In this document: positions 3,056 to 43,771 of the stretch, piece after piece
Layout of the letters: the number at the start of each line of letters is the position of its first letter
How positions within the stretch are numbered: the stretch's first letter is position 1
Virus record (IMG/VR): IMGVR_UViG_3300007643_000003
Location: 1 to 43,819 of that record
Direction: 5' to 3' (one strand)
DNA length: 43,819 nt
DNA from: a virus
Lineage: Duplodnaviria > Caudoviricetes
Notes under the pieces: model-generated
Told to the model about the DNA's origin: nothing
Seen by the model: only the letters and a program-made list of their open reading frames with translations
Database searches by the model: none
Made by a program: the position numbers and the translations under genes

Positions 3056-3248
3056 GACAGGGGCCCGCTACCTGATCGAGCACACGTTGCGCTTTTGCTA
3101 TGAGCTCAGGCCCTGGGGATTCGATGATGTCACGAGCAAGGTCACGCAATTGCGCATCACGAAGCGCAAGTACGGCCTCTGTGAGTTTCAATTGATCATC
3201 GGCGCGTGTAAATCTATCGGCATGGATAGGTGTGACGGATGCACTCAT
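3048..3248 (-). CDS. Hypothetical early-left phage protein
   Basis: ATGA overlap with csrA. Confidence 0.7.
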
Positions 3249-3487
3249 GAGATCACCTGCGCTTTGCGATCATTCCAGGCAGCATCAATTTCCGATCTCT
3301 TTGGATCAGCCGGATTAGGCTCCTGACCTTCCTGAATACGCTGATACACCTCTTCACGATGTACTGAGACGTCGGAAGGCGCTTTGATACCAAGCTGCAC
3401 CTGCTTGCCTTTGATCCCGAGAACAGTGACTGTAACGTCGTCACCAATACGAATGGATTCATCAGCTCTGCGAGACAGTATGAGCAT
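3245..3487 (-). CDS. csrA: Phage-encoded carbon storage regulator CsrA/RsmA homolog
   Basis: [51 protein letters not shown]; TGATG coupling with the upstream gene. Confidence 0.95.
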
Positions 3488-3699
3488 CAGACCCACCCCG
3501 CCATGTCAGCTGTGGCATAGGCCAGCAGGGCGATACCAAAGGCATAGAGAGCCACCCCCAGCCAACGGCCTGAGTAAGGGTCAGTACCGTCCTCTATGTC
3601 GGCCAGGTACTCCTGATCGGTCTTGGGGAGGTACTTGCGGGCTTCATCTCGAAGGTGCTCAAGCCCTTGTACATCGGTATCTGGAATGTTTGGCTGCAT
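3487..3699 (-). CDS. Small membrane protein, first gene of the leftward operon
   Basis: GGAG RBS plus ATG (MQPNIPD), C-terminal hydrophobic helix. Confidence 0.7.
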
Positions 3700-14373: not shown

Positions 14374-16170
14374 ATGACTCTTGAAGCTCGAGTTGATCTG
14401 CTGGCAGCGGCCATTGGTGCTGATCTCGGTGCGCTTGAAGCAAAGATCCATGTGCCGCTTGTACTGCCCAGCGATCCTCAATTTGGTGGTGTGGGCGATG
14501 CTGCCTATAACGACACGGGTGATAGAACAACGTCAAATTGGACGGGTACCGATGACACAGCCGCTGTAAACGCCGCTTACGCTTTTGCTGAAGCTAACGG
14601 CCTTTGCGTGTTCTTTGACAGGCTTTACAAGTGCGATGGTGTTATTAACATCAAATCGGGTGCTCAATTCTATGGTGCTGGTCCCAACACTGGCATAGCG
14701 ATGACTTGGGTTGATTACCTCTCGAGCACAGAGGTCGCCAAGAAGACGCTATTCGCGCCTGAAACTGTGGCGTATGTTGATGGTGTTCCCAATTTTCACA
14801 ATGCCAAGTTTGTGAATTTTGCCGTTTACGGGCCCTGGTATGAGAACTGGCACCCTTGGGGGAAAAATGCAGACAATACCGGGCGCAGTATCTCCTATGT
14901 ATTGCCACAGCGAAGCACGGGCATTCACGTCAAGGATATGCATTTTCAAGGGGTCGGTTGCGTCACAATCGGCGCTCACGTGGACAGCTGTTTCGAAAAT
15001 AACAGGATTAAACGAACAGGGCGTGATGGCATCACGGTTGGGTTTAGTTCGGTCGATCATGATCATAGTCGGCCTACTTACGTTTATATCCTGGGAAATG
15101 TTCTTGAAGAGACAGGTGATGACTCTATTTCTGTTCAGGGCCTTAACACTGCAATGCCCCCGTTCGTGGCGGCAACGACCACAGCAGGTTCACGAACAAT
15201 CACGTTGGCATCTGACCCCGGTGATATTGTAGGGCAGGGTGTATGTATCAAGGGTGCGGGACAAAACAGCACCAAACTAGGCGCAAAGGTTGTCAGTCAA
15301 ACCGGTGTGACGATTGAGATTGATAGGCCTGCACCGCTGACGGTGACTGATGATATGTCATACGACTGCTATGCCCATGGCAAGATCATGATCGCCGCGA
15401 ACAAGGTTAACAACAAAGGCGATGGCAGGGGCATTATGGTGCGTAATCTTGCCGATATGTCCGTACTCAGCAACACAGTTGACAACGCTGCTATTCACGA
15501 TATCTATGTGGGCTCTGATAGCTTTGGTAGCGTCTCATTCGATTCGGTGATCGATGATAATGATTGCAACTGGGCAGGCAGTCATTCTCTGAGCACGGTC
15601 ATTGCAGACGGTATCAATCTGAGCTTTGTCAGTGAGGTCAGAGTGACCAATAATCGCTGCCGAAATAATTCATATGCAGGAATTTACGCAACGCTAGCCA
15701 ACGCTTGCGTGATTAAAGGCAATGAGGCCAAGTACAACAATAAGAACGCCACATCTGCATCAGCGGCACAGATTGAGGTTAAATCATCGGGCGGTGTTCA
15801 AGTGCTATCCAATGACGCCATTGGCGGTTACAAGAACGGCGTGCTGATCAAGGATACAGAAGGCACTGTATTTATAGGCGGCAGGCTTGAGCGGCACGTC
15901 AATGGTGCTGTATACGGCGCATACATAGCGGGTAACACCGACCTGCGTATGGATGATTTAACGATCACAAAGAACTATCGATCAATGAATATTGCATCGG
16001 ACAACGTGAGTATCTCTCGTGGTACACGTGGTTCATCTTATGGCAATACAAACAATAACGCGCCATACATCAACCCGAGCTTAGCTGCGAACGTCATTAC
16101 AAATGAAAGTATGTACTTTGATCCAGAGGCGCGAGGCTTTGCCGCGCTGCAGTCAGTGGCCTTACCATGA
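14374..16170 (+). CDS. Pectate-lyase-like beta-helix depolymerase/spike
   Basis: FGGVGD...TDDTAAVNAA cap motif, TGDDSISV, many N-x-I/V beta-helix repeats. Confidence 0.85.
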   Translation: MTLEARVDLLAAAIGADLGALEAKIHVPLVLPSDPQFGGVGDAAYNDTGDRTTSNWTGTDDTAAVNAAYAFAEANGLCVFFDRLYKCDGVINIKSGAQFYGAGPNTGIAMTWVDYLSSTEVAKKTLFAPETVAYVDGVPNFHNAKFVNFAVYGPWYENWHPWGKNADNTGRSISYVLPQRSTGIHVKDMHFQGVGCVTIGAHVDSCFENNRIKRTGRDGITVGFSSVDHDHSRPTYVYILGNVLEETGDDSISVQGLNTAMPPFVAATTTAGSRTITLASDPGDIVGQGVCIKGAGQNSTKLGAKVVSQTGVTIEIDRPAPLTVTDDMSYDCYAHGKIMIAANKVNNKGDGRGIMVRNLADMSVLSNTVDNAAIHDIYVGSDSFGSVSFDSVIDDNDCNWAGSHSLSTVIADGINLSFVSEVRVTNNRCRNNSYAGIYATLANACVIKGNEAKYNNKNATSASAAQIEVKSSGGVQVLSNDAIGGYKNGVLIKDTEGTVFIGGRLERHVNGAVYGAYIAGNTDLRMDDLTITKNYRSMNIASDNVSISRGTRGSSYGNTNNNAPYINPSLAANVITNESMYFDPEARGFAALQSVALP

Positions 16171-28597: not shown

Positions 28598-29031
28598 GCA
28601 CGTTCTCTATCGACTACCTGGTCACCAAGTCACCGATCGGTCCAGAGCGTGTAGGCAGTCGAGCATTGCTGATCTGCGAAGCGCGCACGATGAATCCGCC
28701 GACTGATAAGCACACGCGATCAGACACAGAGTACACGGGCGATTTCGAGTCAACATTGCTCAAGCAATGGGAAGAGATCAGCATTACCGTTATCAACATC
28801 CTGCACGGCTCACGTGATGAGCTGATCACAACCAGCCTGTCACAGCACCTGGATTTCAAGCAGTTCTTTCAATCCTCGGCCAACGGCCAGCGCATGACGC
28901 TCGATGGCACTGATATCGGCGGTATTGATCAGCTGCACCAGGTAAAGCTTATCGGCGGATCAAACGAGCTCATCAGAAAAGGCCAACGGCAGAAGTTCTC
29001 CACCACGTTCAAGTTAAGGGTCGTTGTCTGA
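28594..29031 (+). CDS. Putative distal tail protein
   Basis: 145-aa beta-rich ORF directly after the tape measure gene. Confidence 0.6.
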   Translation: MSTFSIDYLVTKSPIGPERVGSRALLICEARTMNPPTDKHTRSDTEYTGDFESTLLKQWEEISITVINILHGSRDELITTSLSQHLDFKQFFQSSANGQRMTLDGTDIGGIDQLHQVKLIGGSNELIRKGQRQKFSTTFKLRVVV

Positions 29032-30632
29032 TGGCTGTATGGGATGGCATTGCAGAAGGTAGTGCCGGCATTGCCGCCACGCACTTCGAAGATGTATTCG
29101 AACAAACAGGCGTGCAGATTTACAACAGCATTGGCACTGATAGCGCTATGTCAGCCAATGATGGCACCTGGGGCTCTGGTCTGTATTCTGATGCGATCAA
29201 TCGCACGTTCATGGATTACGGCTACAAGTCGGTTATCAATTTCGAGCAACAGATGTACCACAGTTCATATTGGGCGCACCCCAGCGGCTGGAGCCCCTAT
29301 TCACTGGTAGGCGATGCCATTCGCATCTCATCATCACCGATCGATCAGAACAATGCTGCAGAAAAAGCGTGGGCTGTGCGAAAGGCCTATCACCTACGCG
29401 CCGATGGCGGTCTGTCCACCTGGAATGATTTCGGCGGTACACCACCTGCCCAGTGGTCTGCTCGAGCGAAGGGCCCGGGCGAGACCAATGACAGCCCGGT
29501 TCTGTTCGATGATTACCCGATGCTCTACAAGTCGGGCATGTTGTTTGGCCGTAATGCTTATGGCTTTGGTGAGTATTCCTTCACCGCAAAACTGCCCTAC
29601 GGTGCAAACGGTGCCAGCGCCGATGTCAATCTACGCCGAGCAACGTTTCCAGCTCTGTGGCTACTGCAGATGATCATATTGGGGCGTGGCGTTAACGGCG
29701 AGCCGTCCAATGACACGGCCACCCCTTTTACCAACACCGGCAAATTGCGCGAGCCTGATGTTGCTGAGATGTTTGGCGAATCAGCACGGCGCATACATCA
29801 CACCGCGCACTACAGAGCTGCCACAGGTGATCCTGACTACCCCTTTGGCAATGCTGATCTGCAGCTCAAGCCGGGTACCCAGCCGCTACTGCCCAATGAT
29901 GCTGATTCTGTATTCCATAACTATCGGTTTCAGCTAACTCCTGGCAAACTGATCTTTCTGATCGATGGTGCCGTGTCGTTCGTTGTTGATACGCCGGCTG
30001 ACTACTATGAGCCTCTGCGCATCTACGAGACAGTGCCTGGTCAGCCCTACAACGTAGTTAGAGATGGACAGGGGCGTGGCAAGTGGACAGGTGAGTATCA
30101 GAGAAACCCTGACGGCTCGCTAAAGTATCCACGCTATCGCATGCTTATGAATTTAGCGGAAGGCGGTAAATACCCTCGTGATCTTGCCAGGCAACTATTC
30201 GATGCTGGCACACCCATGCCTGTGCACAACGAATCCAACACCATGGACATCAGCCACGTATCGTATCGAAAGCTGATCACCGATAACCCCGACACCTATG
30301 ACGTGGGCGATAGCAATACTGGCGGCGGAACAGACCCGGTCGTAGTGCCCCCTGCCGTGACGTTCGAGGATTCATTCAGATTCCGCGTTCATAAAACCAA
30401 ACAGCAGTACGTCAATGCGCCTACCAATGTACGGGCTGAGGTGACCGCCAATCCTCTTGGGTTTCCCTACAAGTTCAGCATTACAGTGGATCAAAGCAAG
30501 GTACCTGCAGGTGCGACGGTTACTATTGAAGGTGGTGCAGATGATCAGGCGTCGATTTACTCAGACGTAGCCCTGGACGTTGACGGACTGATAGTCATCA
30601 CGGCAGAGCAAGACGGCGAACCGCCCAGCTAG
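29031..30632 (+). CDS. GH16-like glycoside hydrolase in the tail module
   Basis: YKSG, AKLP, FPALWLL, EPDVAE (ExDxxE), FHNY...LIFLIDG, LMNLA.GG. Confidence 0.8.
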   Translation: MAVWDGIAEGSAGIAATHFEDVFEQTGVQIYNSIGTDSAMSANDGTWGSGLYSDAINRTFMDYGYKSVINFEQQMYHSSYWAHPSGWSPYSLVGDAIRISSSPIDQNNAAEKAWAVRKAYHLRADGGLSTWNDFGGTPPAQWSARAKGPGETNDSPVLFDDYPMLYKSGMLFGRNAYGFGEYSFTAKLPYGANGASADVNLRRATFPALWLLQMIILGRGVNGEPSNDTATPFTNTGKLREPDVAEMFGESARRIHHTAHYRAATGDPDYPFGNADLQLKPGTQPLLPNDADSVFHNYRFQLTPGKLIFLIDGAVSFVVDTPADYYEPLRIYETVPGQPYNVVRDGQGRGKWTGEYQRNPDGSLKYPRYRMLMNLAEGGKYPRDLARQLFDAGTPMPVHNESNTMDISHVSYRKLITDNPDTYDVGDSNTGGGTDPVVVPPAVTFEDSFRFRVHKTKQQYVNAPTNVRAEVTANPLGFPYKFSITVDQSKVPAGATVTIEGGADDQASIYSDVALDVDGLIVITAEQDGEPPS

Positions 30633-36931: not shown

Positions 36932-39900
36932 ATGACATTAGGCGTATCAGGCACACGCGGTGATGCCACAACGATTGATGTGGCAGGCGCTGTATCCAGG
37001 GCAATCAGCGGCCAAAGCTACAGCGAACTTTACTCAGGCACAGAAGAGGAGGGCATTGCAAACGGCGCTCTAGTGGCTGTGGGTGCACTAAGTGTGAATG
37101 TCTACCGTAAGGCATCGATATCGACCCAGCCCTCACTGATATCGCCTCTGTCTGGCTCTCAGCTCACAGGATCAAGCGTCACGCTCATCTGGAGCCATGG
37201 TGCGAATGACAACGCCCGACAGTACGACGTTCATCTGAGCACTCAGCCCCAGCCATCCGATGACTCGAGCCTAGGCAATGACGTGGCGGATTCTGAGGGC
37301 ATTGGCAACACGGATCGCGTCACGTTCAACTTCATCGGAACCCAGGGCAGATTGCTCTACGGGCGTATTCGCTATAGCGATGATGGCTGGGTCAACCAGG
37401 GCACGACCACGGTTGCCGATGGCGAGTACGTCGATTTCATCTTGATAGAGGCGGACATTGCGCAGACGGGCAACATCCACGAGCTAGTCGGCTACGACAT
37501 TGTTGCAAAGTACCTCTCCTATTCACCACCTGTGATCAATCACACGCCGGATGAGACGTTTACCAGCATCTCTGCGTTAAAGGCGAAGCTTGATAGCAAG
37601 GTCAATCATTCAGTAGGTGGCAGGTCGGCTGTGTATTGGCTTGCCGCTGGTTCTTCACACACGATCAGCAGTCAGATCGAGCCTCGTGTTACCAACTGCA
37701 TTATCTCAACCGACCCCAATAACCCAGCAACAATCAACGGTGGCGGGAGCAGGACGGGTACAACAGGTTCTAACTTTGGTTTCCTACTCGACAATTGTAC
37801 TAACACAGAAGTCAGCAATTTCAACATCACGGGCATGCGTTACCACGGCGTGGCGGTGGGGCGTGAGGACAATGAGCCTGGTGGGTTAAACAACCGGGTT
37901 CTCAATTGCGTGATCACGAACTGCGGCACCTCCGGTGTTGCGGTGCGCAATCAAGCAAACGATACGCTGCTCGAAGGGCTCCGCATCAGCGCCATTGGAT
38001 CTGGTGACACGCTTGGTGAGGGCATCTATCTCGGTTTTGGTAATGATAAAAACAATGGAAATCTATCCAACCACGTATTTAATACGACGATTCGCGGTTG
38101 CGAGATATTCGATACCAATGCCGAAGCGATTGATATAAAGCGGCACAGTCGCAGCGTGCTGATCGAGTTCTGCCATCTGCATGATATCAGCGTGAAATCT
38201 CAAGGGGCGATCACCGTGTTGCTCTCGATGGGTAACGGGTACACCACAAACTACGATGCGAACGTGCGAATCCGCTCATGTTTCATTGATGGTGTCACCA
38301 CACGAGAGTTTAATGGCGATGGCATTGTGGCAGCCCTGGGCAGCACAATCATCGAAGACTGCATCATCAACAATGTGGCAGGCAATGGCATCTCGTTTTA
38401 CTCGGATTTTGATGGTCCTAACAAGGATGGCATTGCACGCAATAACATCATTTGGGATTTCGGTGGTGTGGCGATAGAGGAGAACCAAACCAATGGTAAT
38501 GGTTCCAGCACAGCAAACGGCACCATCACACGTTCAAAAAACTACGTTGAATCAGGCTCGGTAGCCAGTGAGACGACAACACCGCAGTTCTTAGGGCCTT
38601 TCCCGGCCGCCAGCGTCAACGCCTTCAGTCCGAGCGGTGACGGCGTTGTCGTGGAGCCTGGCACTGGTGATACATTGACTGCGACACTGGGTAGTCAGGA
38701 TCTCACGGAGACGACGGCCAAAATTCGCTGGACACCCTCTGTGCCAGCCACAGGGCAGATATTCTTTGGCACCTCTGCTGATAACTTGAATCGGTCCTCA
38801 GTGCTGGAGTCCTCCTACCTGAGTGCTCACTCGCAAACGATCCCTAACAACCCGCCGACGCCGCTTCTGGATGCTGCCACCACGTACTTTTTCGAGGTGC
38901 GTGGGCAAGATGCCAATGGAGAAACCTACACGCAGCCAGGAACGTTCACCACGCCAGGCTCGGCAACTGATGCTATAGCGGTTAACAGTAATCGCGGTAC
39001 AACTGGATCCACATCCCTTTCACATAACCTTTCAGATAACGACACACCGTCCGCCACAGGGGTGACAACGTACGTCCTGGAGGGTACTGCTACCAATGTG
39101 GTTGTGGACTCGCTGAACGCCACCACGGGCGCCTACACGGGCACGGTGCAGGCTGATGGCAGTTGGTCATTCAGATACAACATGCTGCTCGACGGGGTCA
39201 TTGTCAGCACGGCATTCGAATCGGGTGTTTATAGCTCCACGCCTATAGTAGCGCTCTATGTGGATGAAAATACCGGCAGCGACTCGAATTCAGGCACCCA
39301 ATCAAACCCTTACCGGACCATCAGCAAGGGGATTGCCGAGGCCACAACGGGTGATACTGTCTATGTCCGCGCCGGCAATTATGGTGATCAACCGTTCAAT
39401 CTGAACAAGAACATCATCATCGAGGGCTGGAAAGACAGCCCAGGTGATCGGCCAACTTTGGCCTTATTCAATGATGCAGATTTCACCATTGACTCAGCCC
39501 TAATACCAGTCATCGACAAGGGTTTCCGGAACAACAACAACACAGGTATCACCGTATCCGCACCAGGTGCAACCGTGATCTCATTTGCTGTGCGCCAGTA
39601 CAAAGAATGTTTTTACATGACGGGTGACAACACGCATGCAAAGAACATCTATGCCGCTGATTCTAGTCGATTGGATACCGGAGACTATTCGGGCAAGGGT
39701 ATCCACACCAGGCCAGGGGCAGATGGTTGCACACTGGACAATGTGCGTGCCAGGAACGTCTCTGCTGAGTCCCTGGGCGTGTACGGGTCCAATGGTACTT
39801 GGAGCAACTTCTCGGCCTATTGCAACACACAGGCCAATGGCATACGTGATGTGACCCAGTATTACCTAATTGTTGTGGGCAATAACAACAACATGAGCAA

Positions 39901-40516
39901 TTTGGTGCTCAGGCGTGAGTATGGCATCACGCGGCATGGCGGTCACCTGGCGTTCAAGTCCGACCCGCAGGGCAACACACTCGATGGCTTTCACAACATC
40001 AACATCGACAACGCTGTGCAGCTGCGTCATCAGGAAGCGCGATTCAATACGATTCGCAACGGGGTGATTGACGGCGGTTTAGGTATCTGCTGCCGCGATG
40101 GCGGTCGAGACAACAACATCGAGGATATTGTATTCAACAATGTTCGATACCCGATCTGGTTCCATGATGGTACAGAGGATGAGCCAAACAATACGGGGTT
40201 TAGTGGAGCTAACAACACATTCCGACGCCTTGTGATCAACAACGCATCGAACGCTGTGATTCTGACCAATGGGCTTGCTGCTGGAGTGCGGGACATCAGC
40301 GGCAATACCTTTGACGATATCACTGTCAACGGTGCAGCTGCGTTTGTTGAAATCGACGGCGGCGATCTGTTACCCAACAACATCTTCACCAATGTCACGC
40401 TGAACAACGTGTCAACCAAAATCTCCAGCGGCTCATCTCGTCCTGGTGGCTATCAGCTGGACAGTGGCTCCACAGCGGGCATCACGGTCAATCCGTCGAA
40501 CTTCTCGCTGCCCTAG
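36932..40516 (+). CDS. Large tailspike/adhesin with two beta-helix domains and FN3-like domains
   Basis: GEGIYLG...EAIDIK beta-helix, TTAKIRW...TTYFFEV (FN3), YVDENTGSDSNSGT..NPYRTI...GDTVYVRAGNY (DUF1565-type cap) plus a second beta-helix. Confidence 0.85.
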   Translation: MTLGVSGTRGDATTIDVAGAVSRAISGQSYSELYSGTEEEGIANGALVAVGALSVNVYRKASISTQPSLISPLSGSQLTGSSVTLIWSHGANDNARQYDVHLSTQPQPSDDSSLGNDVADSEGIGNTDRVTFNFIGTQGRLLYGRIRYSDDGWVNQGTTTVADGEYVDFILIEADIAQTGNIHELVGYDIVAKYLSYSPPVINHTPDETFTSISALKAKLDSKVNHSVGGRSAVYWLAAGSSHTISSQIEPRVTNCIISTDPNNPATINGGGSRTGTTGSNFGFLLDNCTNTEVSNFNITGMRYHGVAVGREDNEPGGLNNRVLNCVITNCGTSGVAVRNQANDTLLEGLRISAIGSGDTLGEGIYLGFGNDKNNGNLSNHVFNTTIRGCEIFDTNAEAIDIKRHSRSVLIEFCHLHDISVKSQGAITVLLSMGNGYTTNYDANVRIRSCFIDGVTTREFNGDGIVAALGSTIIEDCIINNVAGNGISFYSDFDGPNKDGIARNNIIWDFGGVAIEENQTNGNGSSTANGTITRSKNYVESGSVASETTTPQFLGPFPAASVNAFSPSGDGVVVEPGTGDTLTATLGSQDLTETTAKIRWTPSVPATGQIFFGTSADNLNRSSVLESSYLSAHSQTIPNNPPTPLLDAATTYFFEVRGQDANGETYTQPGTFTTPGSATDAIAVNSNRGTTGSTSLSHNLSDNDTPSATGVTTYVLEGTATNVVVDSLNATTGAYTGTVQADGSWSFRYNMLLDGVIVSTAFESGVYSSTPIVALYVDENTGSDSNSGTQSNPYRTISKGIAEATTGDTVYVRAGNYGDQPFNLNKNIIIEGWKDSPGDRPTLALFNDADFTIDSALIPVIDKGFRNNNNTGITVSAPGATVISFAVRQYKECFYMTGDNTHAKNIYAADSSRLDTGDYSGKGIHTRPGADGCTLDNVRARNVSAESLGVYGSNGTWSNFSAYCNTQANGIRDVTQYYLIVVGNNNNMSNLVLRREYGITRHGGHLAFKSDPQGNTLDGFHNINIDNAVQLRHQEARFNTIRNGVIDGGLGICCRDGGRDNNIEDIVFNNVRYPIWFHDGTEDEPNNTGFSGANNTFRRLVINNASNAVILTNGLAAGVRDISGNTFDDITVNGAAAFVEIDGGDLLPNNIFTNVTLNNVSTKISSGSSRPGGYQLDSGSTAGITVNPSNFSLP

Positions 40517-40527
40517 CGCCGCATGAC

Positions 40528-40551
40528 TGGGGTATGTGTTCAGTTCAAAAT
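40528..40551 (-). repeat. 24-bp direct repeat, copy 1
   Basis: TGGGGTATGTGTTCAGTTCAAAAT, 22/24 identical to 40833..40856. Confidence 0.85.
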
Positions 40552-40552
40552 A

Positions 40553-40816
40553 TTGTCTTTAAAAAGGGCACTAGTTCAACCTAGTCGTCCTGTCCATAGG
40601 CGTGTACCGACGCCTCGTTTTAACCTTCTGCCTAATCTATGGGGCGCTATTCCATCTACCGTATCCCTCGTATCAAGGGGTAACACCTTCTCAGGCCATG
40701 CAAACACGGGAAGCGCTCTCGCTATCTCGTTAGGCTATATCGTTACGCAGTCTCACCGAACGAAGTCTGGACAGGCTGATTACCACTCGCGTAGTGTCGG
40801 CCCTTGTTAAAAACAA
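40553..40816 (-). ncRNA. Putative structured RNA domain C (~264 nt)
   Basis: 17-bp terminal stem (40553..40569/40800..40816), inner stems CCTGTCCA/TGGACAGG, GCCTAA/TTAGGC, AGGCGT/ACGCCT; GCGA tetraloop on the - strand. Confidence 0.7.
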
Positions 40817-40832
40817 CATCTATTCTCCTGTG

Positions 40833-40856
40833 TGGGGTCTGTGTTCAATTCAAAAT
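40833..40856 (-). repeat. 24-bp direct repeat, copy 2
   Basis: TGGGGTCTGTGTTCAATTCAAAAT. Confidence 0.85.
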
Positions 40857-40859
40857 TAG

Positions 40860-41020
40860 TGGCCTACTGATTAACGGCTGGCCTGCCGCCCGGCTTTCTC
40901 ATTTGTACTCACGCGGATAACGAATCAGCTTCGTTGCTGGGTCGGTTCCCAGCCTTGGTATCAGTGCTGTCTCTCCAGCTGTCACGTCCGCGAATACTGG
41001 CAGTCACACTTGCACCACCG
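40860..41020 (-). ncRNA. Putative structured RNA domain B
   Basis: CTGCC/GGCAG and GTACTC-CGCGGA/TCCGCGAATAC stems closing a junction of three hairpins (40919..40935, 40936..40953, 40966..40979). Confidence 0.7.
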
Positions 41021-41046
41021 TATCGCTGTCATAAGTATAAGCATCC

Positions 41047-41161
41047 GACGTTCTAACTCTAGGCCCGCTTCGACTCGGGGCAATTGCATAGCGGCCTTCT
41101 GCAATCACGCGCACGTTTTATTTGAGGGCCATAAGTTGGCCAGCTACCGCGTCCGAACATC
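41047..41161 (-). ncRNA. Putative structured RNA domain A
   Basis: GAUGUUC/GAACGUC closing stem (U-G pair on the - strand) with hairpins at 41127..41141, 41083..41105 and 41064..41079. Confidence 0.6.
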
Positions 41162-41164
41162 TAC

Positions 41165-41193
41165 AAATTACCACGGCTTTATCCTAGAGTCAA
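41165..41193 (-). promoter_or_regulatory. Sigma70-type promoter driving the ncRNA region
   Basis: TTGACT (41193..41188), 17 bp, TGG-TAATTT (41170..41165). Confidence 0.7.
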
Positions 41194-41252: not shown

Positions 41253-41870
41253 ATGACGAAGAAAACGACCACAGAAGACGATTTCACGCTTGTTGGGTAT
41301 GCAAGGGTCTCCACTGTCGATCAGTCCGTGCAGATGCAGATAGACGCGCTACTGAAGTACGGTGTTGAAGAACACAACATCTACAGTGAGAGCATGTCCG
41401 GCGTGAAAAAGAATCGGCCCAAGTTGGAAGCTGCAATGCGCCAGCTACGTGAGGGCGACACGCTGGTTGTGTGGAAGCTGGATCGTGTTGCACGTTCGAT
41501 CAATAACTTGCTTGAAATAATGAAAGACCTGGAGGATCGCGGTATCAAGTTTCGCTCTATCACTGAAGGCGTAGAGACAGAGACACCGACCGGCAAAATG
41601 ATACTTGTGGTAATGGGTGCGCTTGCTCAATTTGAGCGTGATCTGATTGTTGAGCGCACACGCGCAGGTGTAAAGGCAGCGCAGGAGAGAGGTGTTCAGT
41701 TCGGTGCAAAGCACAAGCTGATGCCCTCGGAAATGCCGAAAGTATGGAAGGCAGTAAACGAACAGGGTAAGACGATGAAGAGCCAAGCCGAGAAGTACGG
41801 TGTGGTCCCTGCAACAATCAAACGGCGACTTGATGAATATGAGAAGTCGCTGATAGCCAACAAGAAATAA
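41253..41870 (+). CDS. Small serine recombinase (resolvase/invertase family)
   Basis: GYARVSTVDQ, RPKL, GDTLVVWKLDRVARS, AQFERDLIVERTRAG, C-terminal HTH. Confidence 0.95.
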   Translation: MTKKTTTEDDFTLVGYARVSTVDQSVQMQIDALLKYGVEEHNIYSESMSGVKKNRPKLEAAMRQLREGDTLVVWKLDRVARSINNLLEIMKDLEDRGIKFRSITEGVETETPTGKMILVVMGALAQFERDLIVERTRAGVKAAQERGVQFGAKHKLMPSEMPKVWKAVNEQGKTMKSQAEKYGVVPATIKRRLDEYEKSLIANKK

Positions 41871-43291: not shown

Positions 43292-43450
43292 ATGTCACAA
43301 CCACACGGCGACAATGCCCTGAAAGAAACAGCGGCCATGACAGACATTGTTTCTGCATTACAAGGTCTCGACCCTGAAAGTGTTCGGCGTGTACTCGCAT
43401 GGGCAGTTGATGTGTTTGTCTCACAGCCAGATACAAAGGAGGATTCTTGA
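43292..43450 (+). CDS. Small hypothetical protein (not in the ORF track)
   Basis: GGAG RBS; 52 aa MSQPHG...ALQGLDPESVRRVLAWA. Confidence 0.65.
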   Translation: MSQPHGDNALKETAAMTDIVSALQGLDPESVRRVLAWAVDVFVSQPDTKEDS

Positions 43451-43590
43451 TTGGTGAGCACCGTTACGGATTCAGCCTAGCGAACTGGAACGGGAGGTAG
43501 CGCAAACCTCTGATCCGTTAAATGACCGCGAAATTCCTCGTTATCGGCCAGCCAAACGGTGCGGAAACGGTAACGGTGCTCACTAATCAA
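43447..43590 (+). ncRNA. Putative structured RNA closed by a 21-bp stem
   Basis: TTGATTGGTGAGCACCGTTAC / GTAACGGTGCTCACTAATCAA (one G-U pair on the + strand) with internal hairpins. Confidence 0.65.
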
Positions 43591-43616
43591 ATATCTAAAA
43601 AGGAGAGCTAAAACCA

Positions 43617-43720: not shown

Positions 43721-43771
43721 CTTTTAATCAGGTGGTCGCTGGTTCGAACCCAGCACGCCCCACCATTGAAA
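43721..43771 (+). repeat. attR core (duplicated tRNA-Lys 3' part)
   Basis: 51-bp identity with 49..99. Confidence 0.97.

Follow-up and report, generated by a model that had tools for sequence, protein, structure and literature searches.

A widely spread, naturally permuted family of phage RNAs and its possible role as a decoy for tRNA-cutting nucleases

Described RNAs and the flagged locus

Phage tRNA clusters have contained stable RNAs without an assigned function since T4 and T5 were annotated, and the GenBank annotation lists RNA C and RNA D for T4 and RNA1, RNA2 (tRNA-like), RNA I, III, IV, 2H and X for T5. The family described here, one member of which we call C, resembles them in being phage-encoded among tRNA genes, and T5 RNA1 and RNA2 keep tRNA arms round an enlarged middle; unlike the T4 and T5 RNAs, however, the family is permutable and has hosts of several phyla. 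By eye, none of the T4 and T5 RNAs carries the family core or the UAAUCAG motif, and the model R1 matches nothing in either locus, nor in the STnc100 loci, the rRNA operon or the A+B unit next to C.

Several other RNAs share single properties with the family. STnc100 (RF02076)/PasD is prophage-encoded, an STnc100-like match has a frame like that of the CUS-3-type members, and PMC13192938 treats STnc100/PasD as a base-pairing sRNA of Escherichia and Shigella; it gives no model match to the family, its copies lack the core, and the closing structure of C is different. Y RNA/YrlA, as presented in PMC4201824, joins a tRNA-like module to a second conserved module and occurs in phages, as does the family. 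Ro60 (TROVE, PF05731) was found in none of five records (the window and four others), and the YrlA model RF02553 has no match on C, its one weak match overlapping real tRNAs in locus L306. Theta ribozymes are likewise small structured RNAs, and they start at a phage tRNA 3' end, but according to PMC10879173 they are HDV-like double pseudoknots, whereas the family core is a nested multi-way junction that also lies inside tRNA frames. The HDV-type Rfam models do not match the core, and a theta-like 5' end near a tRNA 3' end is not seen for C, while the permuted relatives mostly follow abnormal tRNA bodies. tmRNA has tRNA-like ends and, where a tRNA has its anticodon arm, a long domain, as have the family members that are framed by tRNA arms, and natural permuted tmRNA genes exist; unlike tmRNA, the framed members keep the D-stem and have no conserved reading frame, and neither ARAGORN nor Rfam calls tmRNA on the element. 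As a separate observation, a weak permuted-tmRNA match (34.7 bits, below the cut-off) lies upstream of the member in phage Jgk1 (L006:1478-1651). Finally, the phage tRNA variants that defeat PARIS are tRNA-cluster RNAs directed against a tRNA nuclease, which is what we propose for the family of C; according to PMC12409363 those are working tRNAs with a mutated cut site, whereas this RNA lacks an anticodon arm and keeps the site sequence.

The window, the 43,819-nt stretch of viral DNA analysed here, is a near-complete temperate phage (95% complete) in which integrase, repressor, terminase, portal, head and tape-measure genes were recognised and whose 51-bp att repeat, at 49-99 and 43721-43771, lies within a tRNA-Lys gene. 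The flagged stretch (40528-41193) is situated between the last late gene, which ends at 40516 and encodes beta-helix domains, and a divergent serine resolvase/invertase gene (41253-41870, plus strand), whose link to the system is not established. The earlier note, made from the letters alone, had read this stretch as three RNA domains, A, B and C, transcribed from a minus-strand promoter and possibly serving the adjacent recombinase. A three-RNA, recombinase-linked system as such is not supported; the note was right to see here a minus-strand cassette for non-coding phage RNA with a plausible promoter ahead of it. The statement that the stretch holds no convincing protein gene was borne out: its ORFs are short (95 and 62 aa on the plus strand; 29, 33 and 35 aa on the minus strand), and the four that were scanned (95, 62, 29 and 35 aa) matched no PHROG family. 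About one third of the non-coding stretch encodes C.

RNA C and its relatives

RNA C (40564-40805, minus strand) is closed by a terminal helix formed by 40805-40800 with 40569-40564. Within this helix the RNA begins with CGA, a 4-bp hairpin with an ACGCG loop and then GUAAUCAG (40776-40799), a segment common to the permuted form, and continues with the 5' strand of helix P2 (40768-40775), whose pairing with 40596-40589 is indicated by strand-swap energies and covariation. A subtype-specific multi-helix domain follows (40630-40764), which is missing from the minimal permuted form and whose inner helices covary, and leads into the conserved family core (40597-40622), made up of a UAAAACG linker, hairpin P4 and one A. 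The 3' strand of P2, ACGA and a degenerate T-arm-like hairpin follow (40570-40596). C has both sets of family features, the UAARACG linker with P4 and P2, and the ACGCG hairpin with GUAAUCAG together with ACGA after P2, and we regard it as almost certainly a real member of the phage RNA family. That it is made here as a discrete RNA is a prediction we consider probable.

As the earlier note had said, no known RNA family could be assigned: Rfam, applied to the window at gathering thresholds and at E≤10, returned only the attL tRNA and one chance match, and none for C, and ARAGORN made no call at C, the tRNA-like end of which is degenerate. The claim that folding favours the minus strand did not hold, since the two strands fold about equally well and the folding z-score of C is -2.4 or -0.9 according to the ends chosen; we assign C to the minus strand because of the family evidence rather than single-sequence folding.

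The family occurs in a second arrangement. In L003 and L009 the 5' hairpin of C and GUAAUCAG are located 3' of the core, and a scan with the hairpin pattern alone found 33 loci, among which the core lies upstream in all 20 with a fully paired stem (one of them being the L009 contig itself) and in none of the other 13. These permuted RNAs are ~105 nt long, and the minimal permuted form has folding z-scores of -2.8 to -4.4. When aligned, 19 of their 27 pairs covary, including one P4 pair in two sequences, and 96.5% of cells are paired, values reached by none of 500 shuffles; slid controls gave 30-51% across the permuted and C subtype sets. The P4 loop is free in the permuted set and is 6-9 nt long. 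Model R1, trained on the 20 permuted sequences with the window left out, nevertheless matches C in two halves (E 1e-4 and 1e-6), model positions 73-99 at 40802-40776 and the core at ~40654-40594, in reversed order. Because R1 finds both halves swapped, C can be described as the same parts opened at another point, with an extra domain, and its architecture links the forms of the family. One jumbo-phage tRNA array was seen to hold two permuted copies (L281:1426-1550 and 2017-2141).

The C subtype was analysed in an alignment of C with 10 hand-picked members that have the same middle domain, on a structure adapted from the RNAalifold consensus. Both partners vary in 24 of the 43 pairs here, and pairing holds in 93.8% of cells; neither value is reached in 500 shuffles, and slid controls gave 32-44%. 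P4 is invariant in this set because it served as the search pattern, and in the first inner hairpin the outer stem is unsupported in the register used (66% paired). Exchanging helix strands between members points the same way: P2 has an energy of -8.9 kcal/mol with its own partner vs -2.9 with swapped ones (n=18), and the own partner is best in 12/18 cases for P2, 8/8 for P3 and 6/9 for P5, counts that, like those for covariation, overstate the number of independent events, since some members are close kin.

An exact copy of the core is present in 74 IMG/VR loci; when two positions were left free, 17 GTDB loci from several phyla matched as well, and their titles include Microbacterium, Arthrobacter, Enterococcus, Lachnospiraceae, Ca. 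Solibacter, Ktedonobacterales, Thermotogae and Dyadobacter. Of the 13 GenBank phage records that BLAST returned, 12 align over a single stretch of 23-36 nt at ~40596-40630. Near-copies are frequent, 96 core matches reducing to 35 contexts and 41 matches being of the CUS-3 type, and the number of distinct core contexts is 51, window included. Cultured phages with a member are CUS-3, IME10, the Pseudomonas phages D6 and Psa21 and Arthrobacter phage Kumotta. The element is present in 119 of 5426 E. coli genomes and in 1 of 301 genomes of one host family, and its occurrence across host phyla is sporadic. None of the 15 entries listed annotates it. Our literature search, whose coverage stopped short of supplements and subscription journals, found no description of the family, and its motif strings occurred in 0 papers in full text; large catalogues of predicted phage RNAs could list the family in their supplements. 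We conclude that C belongs to a real RNA family that is uncatalogued, widely spread and naturally permuted.

The 51 contexts comprise 21 with the UAAUCAG motif before P2 (C included; L043 is doubtful), 19 permuted ones and 11 without the motif. The insert is enclosed, in many of the 21, by the acceptor, D and T arms of a tRNA or by kissing-loop counterparts of these arms. Among the permuted members a T-loop lies 49-54 nt ahead of the core in 16 of 20 by pattern, the other four being alike by eye, and the tRNA-like bodies upstream often have abnormal anticodon arms. Several of the motif-less actinobacterial copies come after a true tRNA. Overall, 48 of 116 core loci have tRNAs nearby, and all 174 of those tRNAs are on the strand of the core. 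Some members have features of their own. In the CUS-3-type frames (L002:1845-1880 and 2040-2060; L020-L022) the D-like and T-like loops are mutually complementary and make a kissing loop; the D-like loop has a second complement in the UAAUCAG motif. The smallest framed member (~170 nt; L083:1392-1570) directly follows tuf in a Bacilli MAG of small genome size; no phage gene was recognised in its surroundings, and it is alone among 301 related genomes. In L277, L279, L283 and L295 the tRNA-like bodies upstream of the core have a common conserved enlarged middle arm, possibly a second uncatalogued module.

Beyond closely related records, no neighbour protein is shared among 161 ORFs from 40 representative loci. 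A Pfam scan of 104 of the 142 ORFs of at least 80 aa (redundant copies and most annotated genes being omitted) found one resolvase, six HNH proteins, one RtcB and no Ro60. The RtcB RNA ligase gene (L090:1-1062) adjoins a tRNA array that contains a family member.

The A+B unit, the promoter and the direct repeats

The remainder of the stretch behaves differently from C. Unit A+B (40833-41159, minus strand, 327 nt) is a conserved block with sharp ends that begins at the predicted transcription start and terminates in one copy of a 24-nt repeat. In run X1 it recurs with 6 differences between unrelated flanks and without the resolvase, and in run X2 with 18 differences and the same resolvase adjoining. 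The folding z-scores are -0.91 for the whole region, -0.19 for A+B, -0.1 for A and -1.5 for B. At predicted-paired positions, 12 substitutions in X2 keep the pair in 5 cases, break it in 7 and are compensatory in 0; the input to this pair test was 17 of the 18 X2 differences and 4 of the 6 X1 differences, with none of those of X8 as a separate set. The three self-contained domains of the earlier note were not confirmed: only C covaries, and A and B as separate domains are unsupported, A+B moving as a single unit with a putative fold. A+B folds no better than shuffled sequences.

A+B may be a leader or a rarer RNA. Viral pattern scans for its homologs gave 8 and 2 chance matches, one scan being blank; BLAST against phages and plasmids gave short matches only; and nhmmer over 308 loci had a best E of 1.6, with 0.76 for the reversed control. 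Searches anchored on the resolvase found nothing, or relatives of ~40-52% identity without A+B or C nearby, and 159 loci of more distant resolvases contained no homolog of A+B or C. The resolvase itself is a member of a tight subfamily of ~40 proteins (57-90% identity), nearly all metagenomic. At the 3' end of B, a small hairpin followed by UAAUCAG (40867-40889, minus strand) resembles the accessory motif of the family; it has no match to R1 and a folding z-score of -0.16, and its likeness to the motif is not significant.

The predicted minus-strand promoter consists of a -35 hexamer at 41188-41193 and a -10 hexamer at 41165-41170 preceded by TG-n, with a 17-nt spacer and a +1 near 41160, and is one of only 4 comparable sites in the window. 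Three contigs from other runs depart from the window exactly at 41159; the two for which upstream letters are shown are otherwise unrelated there, and both have a TAnnnT hexamer 5-6 nt ahead of 41159, as noticed by eye and post hoc. The hexamers and spacer named in the note were confirmed, but a stricter consensus scan found 0 sites, the 41193-41165 hexamers failing it. Among the public runs no RNA run carrying the stretch was listed, a result with no bearing on expression. The longest word common to the stretch and the cI-cro region, a weak test for a CI operator, is 9 nt.

The 24-nt direct repeat that had been reported after B and C was confirmed in two copies, one beside A+B at its conserved 3' edge (40833-40856) and one beside the last late gene (40528-40551), which are identical at 22 of 24 positions. 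No third copy was found at ≤5 mismatches in the window and a set of collected loci, and the repeat has 0 matches in IMG/VR. In run X2 a Shine-Dalgarno sequence and an ATG follow the A+B block at the place of C, and on a separate X2 contig the late gene ends with diverged repeat-like letters at the spot of the second copy. We infer, from two X2 contigs that are not joined, that the repeats flank an exchangeable cargo slot downstream of a conserved leader, and the slot is likely to hold a protein gene in this relative. In the window, a 29-codon ORF with a good Shine-Dalgarno sequence (40730-40819, minus strand) overlaps the 5' end of C and is possibly a relic of protein cargo.

Possible functions of the family

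Unpaired junction bases are fixed while the helices vary freely, no partner gene is evident and many phyla are represented, and for these reasons we favour a folded surface that acts on a widely conserved target, or on itself. The absence of a partner protein and the occurrence in 1 of 301 genomes fit a self-contained accessory RNA with a target in many phyla, and the exchangeability of the tRNA body makes this body more likely a scaffold for processing or stability than the active part.

Our tentative proposal is that C is a stable decoy that binds host tRNA-cutting defence nucleases, a role already among those suggested in the earlier note and still a live option. Transcription from the minus-strand promoter would cover A+B and the inter-repeat slot and would probably take place in the lysogen as well. 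C would be cut out and shielded by its closing helix, as tRNA-shaped frames or neighbouring tRNAs would do in other members, and the core junction and the UAAUCA segment would fold to one surface bound by a tRNA-handling protein. The best named target would be an AriB-like Toprim nuclease, because the near-invariant UAAUCA is identical to the site at which AriB cuts tRNA-Lys and tRNA-Thr, U36AAUC|A41 (PMC12409363), a match of 6 nt noticed post hoc. The same paper implicates the D-arm/D-loop in AriB binding and reports that the cut-site sequence alone is insufficient for cleavage (PMC12409363). In the framed members UAAUCA adjoins the D-arm, directly after it, and is not at tRNA positions 36-41. 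The segment is invariant in the 20 permuted sequences, by selection, is present in most framed ones, and also matches the anticodon arm of the window's own tRNA-Lys, the att core. The UC of the segment has a possible pairing partner on the opposite strand in the permuted form, and in two contexts C replaces the first A. Since UAAUCA is missing from 11 of the 51 core contexts, every one of them found by scans in which the motif was not required, the UAAAACG-P4 junction is the more universal part, and the AriB match leaves this junction unexplained.

Were the RNA to act on itself, the core would be a new small ribozyme whose self-cleavage or ligation processes either the RNA itself or the transcripts of phage tRNA arrays. 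Circular permutation and invariant unpaired junctions are typical of small ribozymes, and the family combines natural circular permutation with many invariant unpaired junction bases, a minimal form of ~105 nt that folds well, and no need for a partner gene. This minimal form appears to begin a few bases from a tRNA-like 3' end, the place of the theta ribozymes (PMC10879173). Nevertheless, scans of 20, 16 and 14 loci found neither an Rfam ribozyme match nor a described ribozyme in the vicinity. Next to permuted members there are mostly tRNA-like bodies whose anticodon arms are abnormal, and in framed members the core is enclosed by the tRNA body, so that cutting there would yield no mature tRNA. 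We think a ribozyme unlikely.

Allowing for either a tRNA-nuclease decoy or a ribozyme, it is quite conceivable, if short of probable, that these RNAs form a new class of permutable phage RNA machines, whose ~70-nt core sits in a tRNA body, a kissing-loop frame or a plain hairpin, in phages of many bacterial phyla, one of them being carried here as swappable cargo between repeats behind a lysogen-active promoter. Should the family block tRNA nucleases, it would amount to an anti-defence device made of RNA alone; should it self-cleave, to a new ribozyme class. As a test object the family is compact: covariation supports a minimal form of 105 nt, the core is marked out by the natural permutations, and cultured phages carry members.

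The retention of acceptor, D and T arms in framed members, with a long domain replacing the anticodon arm, could instead suggest an RNA that, shaped like a tRNA and with the topology of tmRNA but no tag frame, binds the ribosome or a translation factor and thereby tunes translation or protects it. Such a target would have to be conserved across phyla, and one copy comes after the tuf gene. However, the tRNA body is degenerate in C and absent from the 11 motif-less contexts, a P4 loop of 6-9 nt means that no reading frame is kept, and similarity to E. coli rRNA is not above chance; the tuf-linked copy, found in only 1 of 301 related genomes, also does not behave as a housekeeping RNA. We consider this reading unlikely, too. 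Mimicry of rRNA, an idea prompted by a resemblance to 23S domain IV, was rejected, with no profile match and longest common words of 9-11 nt, the range of shuffled sequences; a 9-nt identity between the CUS-3 D-loop and 23S 2452-2460 was taken as chance. A group I intron was likewise rejected on sequence inspection, as removal of the insert would leave no anticodon stem.

Invariant unpaired bases at a multi-way junction among freely varying helices, with no conserved gene downstream, would also suit an aptamer sequestering a small molecule such as a nucleotide signal of immunity, but no Rfam riboswitch matches and we hold this improbable. It is comparably improbable that the RNA is a base-pairing sRNA of the Hfq type, as with STnc100/PasD, or that it uses its AUCA bases to trap the anticodon of tRNA-Ile(GAU). 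The frame of the CUS-3 member is like that of an STnc100-like match, and AUCAG is complementary to the ileV anticodon loop. Against this, RF02076, which scored 161 bits in UTI89 as a positive control, matches none of five records at E≤10 (the window, CUS-3 and three more), and its five matches in UTI89 lack the core and the motif. The analogy to a T-box specifier was rejected for its strand geometry: here AUC comes after GUA on the same strand, whereas the tyrS T-box specifier lies on the strand opposite AGUA (PMC2879506), and RF00230 matched none of five records.

Sponges of the CsrB/RsmZ type carry many GGA motifs in the loops of hairpins. The earlier note raised ligands of CsrA and partners of the neighbouring recombinase. 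A role as CsrA sponge, or as an RNA that partners or guides this serine recombinase, is very improbable: the phage encodes a CsrA-like protein, and A+B adjoins the same resolvase in X2 at an exchangeable slot flanked by direct repeats, but the GGA count is near background (10 GGA and 3 ANGGA in 609 nt vs 6.7 GGA expected, with no Rfam match), the GGA positions common to the C subtype lie in stems, the C family has no resolvase link (one resolvase in 104 proteins, no neighbour protein shared beyond close relatives in 40 loci), A+B occurs without the resolvase in X1, the 159 distant-resolvase loci hold no A+B or C homolog, and the 24-nt repeat is not palindromic, as invertase and resolvase sites are. 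The CsrA-like regulator is encoded in the early-left operon (window 3245-3496, minus strand). Elsewhere in the window, a 35-nt inverted repeat, 83% complementary, lies directly before attR (43442-43595), and three large beta-helix/glycosyl-hydrolase-16-like proteins are encoded at 14374-16170, 29031-30632 and 36932-40516, one of them preceding the terminase genes; these are likely virion proteins that bind or degrade polysaccharide.
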